62,724 bases of DNA, filler included, from 7 parts of 7 records of this genome joined end to end with filler, not necessarily neighbours in it; one strand, 5' to 3'. Counted from the first letter of the whole stretch, positions 56,518-62,724 are shown. Numbers and translations: made by a program. The notes: generated by a model from the letters alone, not told the origin.

Positions 56518-56758
56518 AAGGTCATTCGGAATATTCCGAATGACCTTCACTGTTATTTGTCATAGATATGTGCTTTATCGGATACACTTTACGAAAGAAA
56601 CTTTTTTCAAATTATTTCTTTTCGTACTCTACAATTCAAAAAGTTTTGAAATTAGAGTGTTGCCCCTTTAATAATATACTTTCCAATTTACTCTTGCTAT
56701 TATATTGAAAGCTTAAGTTTATGCCACACATAGCTATGTGTGGTATTTTTATTTTGCA
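56518..56758 (+). repeat. Structured non-coding element, copy 1 (5' truncated)
   Basis: 30-bp perfect palindrome at 56518-56547. Core 56550-56662 is about 83% identical (hand alignment) to 62575-62685. Terminator 56721-56758 is homologous to 59406-59442. Confidence 0.8.
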
Positions 56759-56766
56759 TAAACTGC

Positions 56767-59040
56767 CTAATTTAATTGAAAACCATCAAAGCTAAACATC
56801 TTTATGTCATACACATCCATCCTGTTGTTAAATACTAAAGTTGCACAGTAGTGCCAGTTGGCAATTTTATCAAGGTTGCATGAACACTCTGCACGATTAT
56901 AAAAATTATCTTTTTCCCATATAACGCTGTTGAATTGCCCATTTTCATCGAAAGTTACAAGCATACAATATGTAACTCCGTGATGCAAGTGCATATATTG
57001 ACTGTTAAAAGTTTCATAATACACCCTTTCATCGGTGTGATAATTAAATAAATATGGAACATTATCTCTGAACTTTATAAAACACCTATCTTCTTCGTTG
57101 TCGCTTTGGAACTCGAAATGGGTGTATTTTGCGTCCTTAGGATCAAACTCAATGTAAACCCCTTGCTGCTCTTTTTCGCCTCCGCAGTACTCTTTTATGG
57201 ATGTCTTTGTCCTAAAATATCCTTCGCCTTTACCTGATGTATATACGCAATAATCACTTTGCCCATTATTTTTCTGCTTAACATCCGCACCGTCATATGT
57301 ACTTATATCTAGGAAATCAAAGCCTTCCTGCTTAATTTCAACATTCGTTAAGTACACATCCATTATCTCGCTTAATGCTGCACCCTTTTCAAGTCCATAG
57401 TTTTCCTCAGGAGTACTGACTATTTCAGCCTGCATATCAGACTCTAAATCAGTATACTCCTCAAAGGCGAGAGTGATAGTTTCATATAGCTCAAATGTGT
57501 TATTTTCCTGCATGCGAAATGATAATTTCCAGTCACTGGTATCTGTAATTTTTGTTCTGCCCGACATATCACAGCTCTGATATGTACGGTTATAGTAATT
57601 ACCCTTTTCCCATAGAATTATCCTGAATACTCCTTGGTCATCAAAGGCTGCAGCCATGCAGTATGTACTGCCGTCTACCAGGTCAAACCCTGTTACAGAG
57701 TTATGAGGTGTTAAAGGTGCAGTCAGACAACTGAAATACGTATGTAAGTACTCTATATACATACCGTCTCTATTAAAGTATAAATAAATATCCTCTGCGC
57801 CACTGAATATAAACTTATGATTTTGATATTTATCAGCCTTAAACTCTGTATAGAATGCTACGTTACCAGAATTACCCGGTGTTACCTGACCTATTGTCAT
57901 ACCTCGCCAAAGTGATACATCTCCTGTATTGTCACCTGTGGTAAACGCATAATAATCATGTTCGCCGTTATTTGCTAATTCATAACTAGCTCCTATGCAG
58001 TCAAAATCAAATCTAACTGAATCCAGCGTTCCGTCATTTATTAAGTTTATACCCTCGAAGTATTTGCTCAGGATTTCATATTCCCCTGCATCAGTATCCA
58101 GTGAATAATTATACTCAAGAGAGTCTATATAGCCCTCACCAAATATATTACTATCTTGGTTATCATCATTCTGCTCATTTTCATCCCCGTGACTTTCGTC
58201 AAAGTATGTATGTTTGCTGTCTTCCAGCACCACCGGCTCTATGCTAAAGTACCTGTCCATCATGTCCGCATTACTTCGATACGCCGCTACATTGCTTTTT
58301 ATATACTGCTCAAAATCACCCTCATAAATGCCCAGCCAATCAATATGAGCAACCTCTGCATTATCCACACTCATCCAGTTTTCATCCACTGCTTCGCTAA
58401 ACATGCTTATTTCCACCGTGTCTGTCAGCCACTCTTCAGGCAGCTTTACAGAATTGTAGACGATTTTATCGTTATTTTCAGCGTCGGCTACCACTGTGCT
58501 AAGTGTGGCATCTTCCTTGCTGTAGTGTATAACCACATCCAGCCACTTATCTCCTGATAACAACGCTGTGCCTCTCAGCCAGAACCCCGTGAACCACTCG
58601 TCTGTATGAAGTTCGATATTTGGTGTTTCAGTGCAGGGCAGATAAAATCTTGCACCTTCGTTCATGCGATCCGGCCTACTGATATCTATCATATACCCTG
58701 AATACATCGTTCCCTTTGTAGTATTCTGCTTTACTCTTAAATGTATCAGCATATTGTCTTCCAGAAAATATTTTAATCCCGTTTCATGGTTTAGGATAAA
58801 CTGACCGTTCTCTATTGTGTTTTCCTCCCAGTAGCGGAACCATTCAGCATCTTCAATATCATCAAATTCAAGTTTCAGAATCTCCTGTATAGGGTCTGCC
58901 GTAGGCTGCGGCGTTGGGGTAATCTCTATAACAACTTCATCTTTTTTTAATAGGTTAATATCAAATACCTGCAATAATATTATCGCCGCAATCAATAGTA
59001 TGATTACGCCGATTAACACAAACAAAACGGACTTTTTCAT
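56767..59040 (-). CDS. Membrane-anchored acidic protein with internally repeated beta-rich domains
   Basis: N-terminal TM, TPTPQPT linker, repeats YCMAAAFDDQGVFRIILWEKGNYYNR / YCMLVTFDENGQFNSVIWEKDNFYNR. Confidence 0.85.
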   Translation of the reverse strand: MKKSVLFVLIGVIILLIAAIILLQVFDINLLKKDEVVIEITPTPQPTADPIQEILKLEFDDIEDAEWFRYWEENTIENGQFILNHETGLKYFLEDNMLIHLRVKQNTTKGTMYSGYMIDISRPDRMNEGARFYLPCTETPNIELHTDEWFTGFWLRGTALLSGDKWLDVVIHYSKEDATLSTVVADAENNDKIVYNSVKLPEEWLTDTVEISMFSEAVDENWMSVDNAEVAHIDWLGIYEGDFEQYIKSNVAAYRSNADMMDRYFSIEPVVLEDSKHTYFDESHGDENEQNDDNQDSNIFGEGYIDSLEYNYSLDTDAGEYEILSKYFEGINLINDGTLDSVRFDFDCIGASYELANNGEHDYYAFTTGDNTGDVSLWRGMTIGQVTPGNSGNVAFYTEFKADKYQNHKFIFSGAEDIYLYFNRDGMYIEYLHTYFSCLTAPLTPHNSVTGFDLVDGSTYCMAAAFDDQGVFRIILWEKGNYYNRTYQSCDMSGRTKITDTSDWKLSFRMQENNTFELYETITLAFEEYTDLESDMQAEIVSTPEENYGLEKGAALSEIMDVYLTNVEIKQEGFDFLDISTYDGADVKQKNNGQSDYCVYTSGKGEGYFRTKTSIKEYCGGEKEQQGVYIEFDPKDAKYTHFEFQSDNEEDRCFIKFRDNVPYLFNYHTDERVYYETFNSQYMHLHHGVTYCMLVTFDENGQFNSVIWEKDNFYNRAECSCNLDKIANWHYCATLVFNNRMDVYDIKMFSFDGFQLN

Positions 59041-59316
59041 ATGCTGCCTCTTCTCATATATTTACTAAGTGAATTATATCATAATAAGGAAATTGTATCA
59101 ATTATATGCAATCTCAGTTTGCACTATAAAATATCCCGTTTACCGAGGTTTATTTATGTAATATTGCGCCCTTATATGGATGAGCTAAATCAGTTTCATA
59201 TTGTTGACAATGGTTTTCGCAATCATCGTTTAACAGCCTATCCGCTGTTATCTAATGTGTACTTTTTTTGTTAAATATATTTTTACTGTGCCAAATAACG
59301 CCAAATATAGATAATC

Positions 59317-59442
59317 AATAAAAAGTGTACAGTGGAGAGCCAAGCGGTGAAGACTTGAACTTGTTAATATTTACTATTAACAAGTTGGAGTTGGATATGA
59401 AATTTATGACACACAATAATATGTGTGTCATTTTTATTTGCA
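59317..59442 (+). repeat. Structured non-coding element, short copy 2
   Basis: Shares 5' blocks (aataaaaagtg, tacagtgg.ga..caag) with copy 3 and the terminator with copy 1. Has a 12-bp hairpin at 59358-59386. Confidence 0.6.
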
Positions 59443-59510
59443 AAGAAATTCTATTATTGCTACAGTATTTAGATGAGTATATAAAAACATATATAATCAC
59501 AGGGCAATAT

Positions 59511-59840
59511 TTAACGTCTTCTTCTCTTCTTTTTCTTCGGCATAATAATATCCATAATCTCTGTATGCGAACTGTAGCCTTTGTTAATAAACTCAACCTC
59601 ACTCATCTGATGAACGATTGAAAGTTTAACAAAAATTGAACCCGGCTTGTTGTTGTAATACATCAGCTCCAGAAAACCATCAGCTTTTAATTTGTTAATA
59701 GATTCAATAAGTTCTGATTCTTTATTGTCAGCAAAGTTCTTTGCTACATCATTGAATGATGTATTTGAAGAATTATTGCTATTTTTACAGCGCTTTAATA
59801 AGTACACCAGTACTTTGTCAGCAAGTTGATATGACTGCAT
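59511..59840 (-). CDS. Small winged-helix-like protein with polybasic C-terminus
   Basis: GAGG RBS before the ATG at 59840; helix pattern ELIESINKLKADGFLEL; ends PKKKKRRRR. TTGACA-N17-TAATAT upstream at 59952-59980. Confidence 0.7.
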   Translation of the reverse strand: MQSYQLADKVLVYLLKRCKNSNNSSNTSFNDVAKNFADNKESELIESINKLKADGFLELMYYNNKPGSIFVKLSIVHQMSEVEFINKGYSSHTEIMDIIMPKKKKRRRR

Positions 59841-60019
59841 AATCACTTCCTCATTTCATAATAAAAATTATACTTAGCTTTTAATAATTCATCAATCTTT
59901 CTATAATATCAACGTTAAAAAAATTTACAAAAATTATACTGATGATTTGAAATATTACACCTAAAATTTCGCATTGTCAATCAAATTTTTTTGTTTTTAT
60001 TTTGCCTTAAAAATAAATA

Positions 60020-60047
60020 TTGACAAAATGAAAAAAAGTAATATAAT
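60020..60047 (+). promoter_or_regulatory. sigma70/sigmaA promoter
   Basis: TTGACA-N16-TATAAT, divergent from the promoter at 59952-59980. Confidence 0.75.
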
Positions 60048-60101
60048 TTCATTATCAAAATAATATTCGTGAAAAATTTCTGCAAGAATGAGGTGAAAAA
60101 A

Positions 60102-60251
60102 ATGTATGAATGTTGGCAATGCGGCGAGATATATGAAGGTAAAAAAGTTAATGGAAAAATAAAGGTATATGATGAATATGAAGATGAGTTTGTATCCTCT
60201 TGTCCTAATTGCGGTAGTAATGAATTTATGAAATATGAAGAAGAATACTGA
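60102..60251 (+). CDS. 49-aa Zn-ribbon protein with acidic tail (ends KYEEEY)
   Basis: GAGGTG RBS; CWQCG...CPNCGS. Confidence 0.8.
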   Translation: MYECWQCGEIYEGKKVNGKIKVYDEYEDEFVSSCPNCGSNEFMKYEEEY

Positions 60252-60413
60252 CAAGTTTTATTTCTTTTATTTATATATATTCATTCATTACCGTGATAAG
60301 AAAGACTTCTTTAATAACTTGAAAACAGGGGTCTTTTTTAAAAATCAGAATTAGAGTTAATTCTAATAAATTTCTATAATCTATAATACAAAATAAGAAT
60401 ATTGGTGAACATT

Positions 60414-61856
60414 ATGAAAATAATTTTTGGACAGCCAGCTAAGAAGATCCACCCGGATAACTTCGTTCTTGAACAGCATTATTATAACAAAGTAGTAAAC
60501 TCTCAAATCCATAAAGATGTTAGTTTCTTTTTTAACATGGGGAAAAACAGAATAATCGAAAGATACTGTCACCTCAATCCACTTATAGACAAACAATTTC
60601 TAAATAACTTATTAAATTATAAAGCCAAATACATTAATTGGTCAGGTACTGACTTGTTCCATGTTACCACTGAAAAAGGTAATAAAAGAATGGTTGTTAT
60701 TGAGACGAATTCATGCCCATCAGGCCAAAAATCAATGCCCCTTTTAAATGACTACAACGAAATGGGTGGATACGAACGCTTAATCAAAGAATCTTTTTTG
60801 CCTTATGTGCGAGAAAAAAGGATGATTAAAGGTGTTTATGCTGTTATTTATGATAAAAATGAAATGGAAGCTTCAGGTTATGCCAGTGCACTATCAAACA
60901 TTCTTAATCAGAATGTATATTTAGTTCAGTATTTTAATAATGATAATAATCCCAGTGTACGATTTAGAAACGATATTATGGAAATAAGAAATGAGCAAGA
61001 TGAATGGCTCCCTGTTTGTGCAGCATTTAGATATGTTACACAAAAACCTTGGAATAGAATACCAGTTAAATGCAAAACCATTATTTATAATCCTATAATT
61101 GCATGTCTTGCTGGCGGTAGAAATAAGCGTACTGCTTCTAAAGCTTATGATCTATTTAATGGTGAGTTAAAACCTTATGGACTAAAAATTCAGATACCTG
61201 AAACGATACAGGACGTAAAAATCCATGAAATTCCGTTGTGGATTGAAAGGTTTGGTTACCAAGCTGTAATTAAAAACCCGTATAGTAATGCAGGGCAAGG
61301 TGTTTATACCGTAACAAACAAAAGAGAATTAGATGATTTTATGAGTATTGAACACTCATATGATGATTTTATAATCCAAAGTTTGATTGGAAATTATCAG
61401 TGGAGCTCAACTAGCAGTGAAGGCAAATTTTATCATGTTGGTATGATACCAAACAAAAAAAATGAAATATTTGTCGCTGACCTTAGAATGATGATAGCAT
61501 CCACTAATAATGGATATAAACCTATAGCTATGTATGCCAGAAAGACTGCTGCGCCACTAAAAAATAATCTGACAGAAAATGATGATTCTTGGGAAATGCT
61601 TGGAACTAACTTATCTGTTAAGTTAGAAGATGGCTGGGGTAGTCAAATTGATAGATTAAAACTTATGGATAGGAAGGATTTTACTCTACTTGGACTAAGT
61701 TTAGATAATCTAATTGAAGGATATATCCAATCTGTGATGTCAACAATGGCTATAGATAAATTATCTGGACAGTTATTAACATCAAAAGGCCAGCTAAGAA
61801 AAAAATTGTTTAAAGCAATAAATGGTGACGAGATATTCAATAGTGAAATCATTTGA
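60414..61856 (+). CDS. Circularly permuted ATP-grasp-like putative peptide/amine ligase
   Basis: N-terminal IETNSCPSG (ExN motif), then VIKNPYSNAGQGV, IIQSLI, ADLRMMI and GTNLS in circularly permuted order. Alternative TTG start at 60402. Confidence 0.7.
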   Translation: MKIIFGQPAKKIHPDNFVLEQHYYNKVVNSQIHKDVSFFFNMGKNRIIERYCHLNPLIDKQFLNNLLNYKAKYINWSGTDLFHVTTEKGNKRMVVIETNSCPSGQKSMPLLNDYNEMGGYERLIKESFLPYVREKRMIKGVYAVIYDKNEMEASGYASALSNILNQNVYLVQYFNNDNNPSVRFRNDIMEIRNEQDEWLPVCAAFRYVTQKPWNRIPVKCKTIIYNPIIACLAGGRNKRTASKAYDLFNGELKPYGLKIQIPETIQDVKIHEIPLWIERFGYQAVIKNPYSNAGQGVYTVTNKRELDDFMSIEHSYDDFIIQSLIGNYQWSSTSSEGKFYHVGMIPNKKNEIFVADLRMMIASTNNGYKPIAMYARKTAAPLKNNLTENDDSWEMLGTNLSVKLEDGWGSQIDRLKLMDRKDFTLLGLSLDNLIEGYIQSVMSTMAIDKLSGQLLTSKGQLRKKLFKAINGDEIFNSEII

Positions 61857-62026
61857 TATTTCATCAACGAAATAGACTTTATCTTTGCAGTTATCGAATA
61901 TTTTTTATACTTCAAATGGTTCCGTTATTTACAGGCATAACAATTTTTTGTATCCTAAAATAATTGTTTATTAACAATTATTTCGGATTATAAATACCAT
62001 AATCTATATTAAAAAGGAGGAGTGGG

Positions 62027-62248
62027 ATGTATACATTTAGTGTTCAAGAGCAAGATGTTCTTATCAAAGCAATTGATGAATATTCATCCTGGTATAAGCT
62101 AACTAATCCAGAGTTTTTTGAAAATCTTAAATCATGCATCAGACAAGGAGATTTTTTAAGATTGGGTTACAAGGAAGTAATGTTTATTGCATCAATAAGC
62201 AAAAAACACTCAGATTATCAAGATAAAATATATAGTAGAAAGTATTAA
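62027..62248 (+). CDS. Hypothetical 73-aa protein
   Basis: Strong AAGGAGG RBS; co-oriented with the neighbouring genes. Confidence 0.7.
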   Translation: MYTFSVQEQDVLIKAIDEYSSWYKLTNPEFFENLKSCIRQGDFLRLGYKEVMFIASISKKHSDYQDKIYSRKY

Positions 62249-62307
62249 ATATACTTGTTATTGTTATAAATCTTAGATAATCAAAATTATTTTTAAGGAG
62301 GATTCGT

Positions 62308-62436
62308 ATGTTTTGTTGTAACGATTGCGGCGAGTTTTTTGATATTACTAAAAGACAAAAGCTTGTTTGCCCAAATTGCGGCAGTGTTAATGTTTATGAT
62401 GAAGAAGATGAATACTATTATGATGACGAAGATTAA
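62308..62436 (+). CDS. 42-aa Zn-ribbon protein with acidic/Tyr tail (not in the ORF track)
   Basis: AAGGAGG RBS; MFCCNDCGEFFDITKRQKLVCPNCGSVNVYDEEDEYYYDDED*. Confidence 0.8.
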   Translation: MFCCNDCGEFFDITKRQKLVCPNCGSVNVYDEEDEYYYDDED

Positions 62437-62502
62437 TCCGGATATAATCTAAACAAATTATATATTCTTTCTGTACAATATTTAAGATTGCAAAAAATGA
62501 CG

Positions 62503-62724
62503 AATAAAAAGTGCGGATGGCACATACAGTGGGGAAACAAGAGAACCTGTATTAGTTATCTAATGCAGGTTCTTCTGTTATCTATCATAGATACATACTA
62601 TGTGGATACACTTTACGAAAGAAATTTTTTCACAGTATTTCTTTGCGAACTATACAATTCAAAAAATCTTAAAAGTAAAGTGTTGACTCATTTGTAGGGG
62701 CTTGTTGAGTAATAATATTATTCA
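62503..62724 (+). repeat. Structured non-coding element, copy 3 (runs to the window end)
   Basis: 5' blocks shared with copy 2, a 14-bp hairpin at 62542-62573, and core 62575-62685 shared with copy 1. Confidence 0.8.

Follow-up and report, generated by a model that had tools for sequence, protein, structure and literature searches.

The 62,724-nt window analyzed here carries, in its last contig (contig G; 56518–62724, 6207 bp, 0.33 G+C), two diverged copies of a core of ~120 bases, referred to as core A and core B, and this repeat is real. Both copies are intergenic, and each follows directly on a strong terminator-type hairpin, the two hairpins being different. Our preferred reading, which we hold tentatively and rate somewhat short of probable, is that the core is one module in a family of small, non-coding interspersed repeats that is restricted to a lineage and found beside terminator-type hairpins. 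By analogy, the class of such a core would include the BOX, ERIC and BIME-type repeats of other bacteria. The window itself consists of seven contigs, with N spacers and the TTAATTAATTAA linker between them, and their G+C contents range from 0.32 to 0.56. Because of this spread, one common organism for the seven contigs is not a given, and in such a concatenated window contig G is therefore the relevant unit.

Two diverged copies of a non-coding core in contig G

An earlier reading of the window, made from the sequence alone and referred to here as the sequence-only reading, had reported that 94 of 113 positions are identical between the two copies, with 17 mismatches and 2 gaps, and our recount gave exactly the same figures. 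Over the full length of the core, alignment with MAFFT revealed 98 identical columns out of 120, with 20 substitutions and two one-base gaps. The substitutions comprise 11 transitions and 9 transversions and have a mixed spectrum (G>A, 6; T>C, 3; T>A, 3; T>G, 3; C>A, 2; others, 3). The local alignment of core A with core B scores 74, whereas 1000 dinucleotide shuffles averaged 12.6 and reached 23 at most, and the best of 336 other 120-nt tiles from contigs F and G scored 20. The exact 21-mer that the cores had been said to share was recovered, and it occurs within the window only in the two cores, even when up to 3 mismatches are allowed (0 occurrences in 100 shuffles). Similarly, a covariance model built from the A/B pair found only the two cores in the window, the next match having a score of 19.2 bits (E 0.1).

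The homology between the copies begins abruptly at CTGTTAT, 0–2 nt past a hairpin, and fades after ~120 nt. The G+C content of the cores is 0.29 and 0.27, compared with 0.33 for contig G as a whole. As the sequence-only reading had described, each core is preceded by a hairpin, and the two hairpins, a 30-bp palindrome before core A (56518–56547) and a 14–15-bp stem before core B (62541–62574), are unrelated in sequence. Its suggestion of a common aataatat tail held for one copy only: the motif lies directly 3′ of core A but 19 nt past core B, and it occurs 7 times in contig G. As a common 8-mer at unequal distances from the cores, it was dropped as a shared tail.

The core is non-coding. Consistent with the earlier statement that the copies have no open reading frame (ORF) in common, the two indels shift the register of the frames across the cores. 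The open frames in this region span 43–69 codons; in the stretch where a frame is shared between the cores, ~1 change in ~12 is synonymous (by eye), and the translated open frame over core B, used as a protein query, returned no candidate. A small protein or type I toxin was rejected, given that no ribosome-binding site is seen by eye, that the two copies have their frames in different registers and that nearly every change is non-synonymous.

The proposal that the core belongs to no known RNA family was borne out by the cmscan check that had been suggested for it, which gave 0 matches at gathering score for the whole window among 4227 families (Rfam 15). A permissive scan that admitted E up to 10 gave Prevotella-2 as the best match over a core, with 19.7 bits compared with a gathering score of 72.1, and the other matches at both loci rest on the flanking hairpins. 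No Rfam cis-regulatory family reached half of its gathering score over the core, and the lone csRNA match is noise (17.9 bits compared with a gathering score of 57, on the opposite strand and outside the core). Two further candidates were rejected. Integron attC sites have ends of the GTTRRRY type; such ends were not seen in the core (by eye), and the context is without a cassette array. In the case of diversity-generating retroelement repeats, the substitution spectrum is mixed and not adenine-specific, and no reverse transcriptase is found among the ORFs of contig G.

Further copies in the same sample

The sample contigs used for the analysis of copies and depth were taken from a single public run that holds a contig identical to contig G and that may be its source. 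They were aligned on contig G at 80% likeness, which gave 70 contigs, and the sequence differences reported here come from 8 of the 70. The sequence-only reading had staked its proposal on the existence of further copies, and at least two more contigs in the same sample do carry the core. A 207-nt contig covers 56527–56732 with 31 differences and 6 gaps (~82% alike). Many of its states agree with those of core B over the core's 3′ half and with those of core A over the 5′ half, and this mixture of states indicates that it represents a distinct copy; its divergence is greatest after 56676. A 1246-nt contig (depth 59.4) matches only 56527–56605, in the 5′ half (9 differences, 1 gap, ~87% alike), and then joins at the 56715 hairpin (joint side of 26 nt).

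Three contigs overlap at 56557, with depths of 13.5 + 10.8 + 59.4 = 83.7, and three contigs fit two places of contig G. The depth over the bins of the neighboring 757-aa gene (56932–58794) is 13.5, and nearly all other gene bins lie between 13.5 and 19.5, with single bins at 27.2 and 30.8. This single-copy depth across the genes argues that the extra copies are dispersed relatives of the core and not a sister strain's allele of the locus. Thus, at least 4 copies of the core are present in one sample, 2 in contig G and at least 2 on other contigs.

In the last bin (62521–62724), the summed depth is 675.7 compared with 13.5 for contig G, no variant is listed and 31 contigs reach across the ends of the stretch. 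This depth may reflect short end overlaps of neighboring contigs and is not counted as copies of the core; the last 30 bases of contig G may lie within high-copy sequence. Further, a joint leads from 62535 through 6 letters to 56518. It is a hint of a segment similar to 62502–62535 in the contig that lies left of contig G and, with short sides and 80% likeness, is taken as a lead only.

Searches elsewhere returned no copy. In viral contigs, a 17-mer gave 3 matches, all within coding sequence and without flanking similarity, and two further patterns gave 0 and 9 matches, none of the 9 extending. The 21-mer had 0 matches in contigs of species-representative genomes and 2 chance matches, both in one coding sequence, in JGI metagenome contigs. 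A blastn search against phages and plasmids yielded one 28-nt match at E 0.07 and nothing else. Across 27 loci around homologues of the 484-aa protein encoded between the cores, no match was better than E 0.002 and none was longer than 58 nt, and 5 related genomes held no copy (best E 0.057). In 399 sampled genomes of the class, with 2 more going unscored, we detected only AT-rich matches of 19–53 nt, the best having an E of 1.5e-4 per genome. Finally, covariance model R1 found the core in 0 of 11, 0 of 151 and 0 of 102 genomes. The genomes searched are samples of their groups and include no positive control genome, and the core family is therefore described as not found in those searched, and not as absent. 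As far as searched, the core family is confined to one sample.

Weak evidence for RNA structure

The sequence-only reading had described the core as structured and the differences between its copies as pairing-preserving. In the RNAalifold consensus, a 5′ hairpin of 6 bp is predicted together with a long-range helix (P1, 8 + 2 bp) that encloses a bulged 10-bp hairpin (P2); P1 and P2 together account for only ~40% of the length of the core. The pairings named earlier exist in both copies; however, none of the 26 predicted pairs has a compensatory, that is, two-sided change, and the four changes in paired columns, all of which keep the pairing, are one-sided. These changes are transitions between a G-U and a Watson-Crick pair, so that they give G-U pairs on the + strand and would be A-C mismatches on the − strand. 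Both indels between core A and core B fall in unpaired columns. A covariation count from two sequences is without statistical power, and because the changes are one-sided transitions, structure cannot be established from them alone, whichever reading of the core holds.

Folds of the single copies are ordinary relative to their shuffles (z −1.07 and −1.57 on the + strand, z −1.31 and −1.55 on the − strand). When the columns of the consensus fold were shuffled, z was −2.26 on the + strand, a level reached by 5 of 300 shuffles, and −0.97 on the − strand, reached by 45 of 300. Changed columns make up 4 of 52 paired and 18 of 68 unpaired columns (Fisher p 0.009), a comparison that is circular, as the structure comes from the same two sequences. 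The partial third copy is changed at 56565–56567, so that 2 of the 6 base pairs in the 5′ hairpin would be lost (by eye), and this hairpin, one of the three stems given as examples in the sequence-only reading, is thus unsupported. In the minimum-energy fold of the region around copy B (62484–62724), a 9-bp helix (62525–62533 with 62687–62696) closes the hairpin and the core. The z of this fold, −4.56, comes largely from the long hairpin, and the segment matching 62525–62533 would, for copy A, lie outside contig G. Overall, the evidence for RNA structure is weak: with single folds like those of shuffles, no covarying pair and a 5′ hairpin broken in the third copy, the structured nature of the core is not shown, and the terms structured and pairing-preserving overstate what two copies can show.

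A possible small interspersed repeat beside terminator-type hairpins

Core A sits in a tail-to-tail intergenic region. It is flanked by the palindrome on one side and by a + strand intrinsic terminator (56718–56754) on the other, beyond which the convergent 757-aa gene on the − strand has its 3′ end (56767). Core B lies ~140 nt past a gene for a 42-aa zinc-ribbon protein, and contig G ends 32 nt after the core. The assembly collection of this sample presumably used 31-letter words; a palindromic 30-mer would break a graph of such words, which would explain why the repeat seemingly lies at the end of contig G. A segment upstream of the hairpin of core B that appeared to recur at 59255–59350 was rejected, as its score of 23 is equaled or exceeded by other tiles (top score of 24 among 3736).

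The terminator past core A is itself one of a type. A second hairpin of this type lies at 59403–59439, and the two have conserved flanks and one compensatory pair change (read from the matched sequences). Many other contigs of the sample match the hairpin type: at 56731, within the first of the two, the summed depth is 348.9 compared with 13.5 for contig G. Together with the internal relative, this depth indicates that the terminator-type hairpin is itself a repeated module, perhaps a terminator-like repeat similar in kind to SPRITE.

The build of the locus looks modular: one copy of the core is partial, unrelated hairpins are swapped before core A and core B, and a second hairpin type is repeated. 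With hairpins that differ by copy and one hairpin type that recurs, the locus looks like a mosaic of repeat modules and not like one conserved gene. Further, the partial copy, the break of homology at the swapped hairpins and the second repeated hairpin type fit the interspersed-repeat class known from other Firmicutes (PMC3049150). The same reading is supported by the dispersed copies in the sample, the AT-rich non-coding core, the tail-to-tail site of copy A, the failure to find copies outside the sample and the 0 of 26 covarying pairs. Such a core could spread or be copied by recombination, or by an enzyme acting in trans and encoded off contig G, and the sharp break of homology at the junction of hairpin and core would mark the joining point. 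A + strand transcript of the core is predicted to fold into a long-range 8–9-bp helix enclosing a 10-bp bulged hairpin, and this fold could affect the 3′ ends or the stability of neighboring transcripts.

Several results weigh against an interspersed repeat. Terminal inverted repeats were not found: comparison of the first 20, 30 and 40 nt with the reverse complement of the last gave scores of 3–7, at or below the shuffle means in 6 of 6 tests (305–500 of 500 shuffles as good). Target duplication was not seen in the flanks, which is weak evidence given a fuzzy right boundary and no empty site, and domain searches of the six larger ORFs of contig G found no transposase, recombinase or reverse transcriptase. 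The partial copy, with its depth of 59.4 compared with 13.5, may come from a different organism in the sample. The fold signal is strand-specific (z −2.26 compared with −0.97), which points to selection on a + strand RNA and not to neutral repeat DNA; in line with this, 4 of 4 changes in paired columns keep the pairing and both indels are unpaired. In addition, a + strand terminator stands 50 nt past core A and no + strand ORF precedes it, an arrangement suggestive of a non-coding transcription unit. The sequence-only reading had concluded that the repeat is a non-coding RNA family or a small mobile or recombination element. What stands of this is a real, non-coding, multi-copy element without an Rfam match; the RNA structure is not shown, and the marks of a mobile or recombination element (terminal inverted repeats, target duplication and recombinase genes) were not found.

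A possible family of small RNA genes and other readings

The fold bias toward the + strand and the terminator after copy A keep viable a second reading, namely that the copies form a family of paralogous + strand small non-coding RNA genes in which the core is the RNA body. We regard this as possible rather than probable. The hairpin preceding each core would then either serve as a leaky terminator or form a stem of free sequence within the RNA, and the RNA of copy A would end at 56718–56754. Such genes would account for the location of core A between two + strand terminator-like hairpins with no + strand gene, for a consensus fold that beats its column shuffles on the + strand only, for the lower share of changed columns among paired ones (the circular comparison above) and for one-sided changes that give G-U pairs on the + strand and A-C mismatches on the − strand. 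They would also accommodate the unrelated hairpins at the same spacing before both cores and the 9-bp helix that closes hairpin and core in copy B, the z of which is mostly due to the long hairpin. However, no predicted pair is changed on both sides, the single-copy folds are no better than shuffles and the third copy breaks part of the 5′ hairpin. Moreover, no conserved promoter lies upstream of the core, the sole conserved promoter-like site being internal, and a partial copy would be unusual for a functional small RNA paralogue. The core matches nothing known in Rfam, and we place a spreading intergenic repeat only slightly ahead of a small RNA gene.

A larger RNA is an unlikely variant of the same idea. 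Here, the core, the variable hairpin that precedes it and a short upstream segment would together form an undescribed + strand multi-stem non-coding RNA of ~200–300 nt, with several copies in an uncultured Clostridia-like lineage. Modeled on the copy B fold, it would have a closing helix around a junction that carries the long stem of free sequence, a small hairpin and the P1/P2 domain.

More doubtful still is the reading of the core as a conserved promoter or regulatory DNA module, made up of a sigma-70-type site (TTCAMA, 18 nt, TACAAT) and an upstream A/T-rich binding region (an invariant 27-mer), from which a short + strand transcript would start near 56642 and end at the 56718–56754 terminator. 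The site occurs in the same register in both copies, with 9 and 10 of 12 consensus positions, and the copies differ within it at 0 of 6 positions in the second hexamer, at 1 of 6 in the first, toward the consensus, and at 4 of 18 in the spacer. As both indels lie upstream of the site, the spacing of the hexamers is kept, and the core begins right past a terminator-like hairpin. However, such sites are common in AT-rich contig G (49 found compared with 34.7 expected), so that finding one within an AT-rich core of 120 nt is nothing special, and copy B has it as a consequence of sequence similarity. The tail-to-tail region around copy A offers no + strand gene that such a promoter could drive. 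The part of the core that would be transcribed is also less conserved: 8 of 34 downstream positions differ, and the divergence of the 207-nt copy is greatest past 56676, as described above.

We consider it very improbable that the core is a cis-acting leader (a riboswitch or attenuator) for which the downstream terminator serves as the expression platform. The terminator 50 nt past core A would suit this role, and a conserved segment of the core, 56657–56663, could pair with its 5′ arm at 6 of 7 positions, as an alternative to P1 (by eye). However, copy A has no + strand gene after the terminator, the next gene being convergent; the permissive Rfam scan did not bring any cis-regulatory family to half of its gathering score over the core; and the downstream side of copy B is cut by the contig end. 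Least probable of all is that the cores are direct-repeat attachment sites (attL and attR) of an inserted 6-kb island: although they are direct repeats 6 kb apart with an exact centre of 21–27 nt, the six ORFs tested in this interval gave no integrase or other recombinase, a 484-aa gene of wide conservation lies between the cores, the further copies in other sample contexts mean that there are not exactly two, and the likeness extends over 120 nt at 82% and is not a short identical core.

Comparison with known repeat and RNA families

In PMC3049150, the BOX, RUP and SPRITE repeats of Streptococcus pneumoniae are described as multi-copy, AT-rich intergenic elements of <200 bp that are confined to a narrow lineage, are predicted to fold when transcribed and number 30–125 copies per genome. 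According to the same paper, BOX is built of modules that can be absent, SPRITE is a repeated hairpin that resembles a terminator and is enriched where convergent genes have their 3′ ends, and both BOX and RUP carry terminal inverted repeats and give rise to target duplications (PMC3049150). By description, the core resembles these elements in being small, AT-rich, multi-copy, intergenic, of narrow lineage and predicted to fold on transcription, and the 56718–56754 hairpin type resembles the SPRITE hairpin at the ends of convergent genes. As far as that description goes, the core is unlike BOX and RUP in that it has neither terminal inverted repeats nor target duplication, and its at least 4 copies in one sample compare with 30–125 per pneumococcal genome. 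The same source names the ERIC and BIME/REP repeats of enterobacteria as background and defines MITEs (miniature inverted-repeat transposable elements) (PMC3049150). The core resembles MITEs in being small, AT-rich, non-coding and dispersed. In contrast to MITEs so defined, the core lacked the defining terminal inverted repeats and target-site duplication when these were tested, and no parent insertion sequence is known.

The core also has features of RNA gene families and of the enterobacterial repeats. The csRNAs and LhrC are paralogous small-RNA gene families of Gram-positive bacteria, and the core is like them in its diverged copies, its non-coding nature, an intrinsic terminator at the end and the best conservation in a central block. 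It is unlike them in that no conserved promoter lies upstream of the conserved block and one copy is partial. With ERIC and BIME/REP, the core has in common an imperfect dyad symmetry, a transcribed intergenic site near gene 3′ ends and a mosaic with hairpin modules. However, ERIC forms a single long imperfect palindrome and REPs have a high G+C content, whereas the core is AT-rich and its two helices span less than half of it. If the core is an interspersed repeat, it would be one more lineage-specific family, of use mainly as a marker of assembly breaks and of an uncultured AT-rich Firmicute. Should it instead prove to be a + strand RNA with structure, it would represent a new class of multi-copy non-coding RNA that has no Rfam relative and merits a covariation study.

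Genes and other features of contig G

The features of contig G are collected in Table 1.

Table 1. Features of contig G, with positions counted from the first letter of the window
Feature	Position	Strand	Remarks
Perfect 30-bp palindrome	56518–56547	+	Terminator-like; ends 2 nt before core A; first 30 bases of contig G
Core copy A	56550–56669	+	Covariance model score 145.3 bits
P1 helix	56584–56591 with 56653–56660		Predicted
P2 helix	56592–56602 with 56614–56624		Predicted
Promoter-like site in core A	56606–56635	+	TTCAAA, 18 nt, TACAAT; 9/12
Intrinsic terminator	56718–56754	+	50 nt past core A; member of repeated hairpin type
757-aa gene	56767–59040	−	3′ end at 56767; convergent toward core A
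Promoter-like site	59288–59315		Near candidate small RNA 59320–59442
Second hairpin of the same terminator type	59403–59439	+
Small zinc-ribbon protein	60069–60251	+	60 aa
484-aa gene	60402–61856	+	Between both cores
Small zinc-ribbon protein	62308–62436	+	42 aa
14–15-bp hairpin	62541–62574	+	Terminator-like; ends directly at core B start
Core copy B	62575–62692	+	Covariance model score 139.3 bits
Promoter-like site in core B	62629–62658	+	TTCACA, 18 nt, TACAAT; 10/12

The 484-aa protein is a member of a large, conserved and unnamed family (hypothetical protein). It matches no Pfam family, with only a weak RimK/ATP-grasp-like stretch (E 0.002), and has 3797 homologues at E ≤ 0.001 (50–69% identity) that span Firmicutes, Bacteroidota, Myxococcota, cyanobacteria and archaeal metagenome-assembled genomes. 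Its best named relatives are from Clostridia-type Firmicutes (63–69% identity); judging from these relatives, the organism of contig G is probably an AT-rich Firmicute without a close reference genome. Homologues at 90% and 81% also occur in assemblies. The 757-aa protein has a hydrophobic N-terminal segment and no family match in Pfam, NCBIfam or PHROGs, and distant relatives (26–27% identity) were detected in only 2 of the 399 sampled genomes of the class. The 60-aa and 42-aa proteins have CxxC...CxxC motifs followed by acidic tails rich in Y, E and D, and their matches to zinc-ribbon families are only sub-threshold; the two are probably paralogues. Finally, a candidate small RNA lies on the + strand at 59320–59442, between two − strand genes. 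In it, a terminator of the 56718–56754 type comes after a strong 17-bp hairpin, and its fold has a z of −5.25, which 0 of 200 shuffles equaled.

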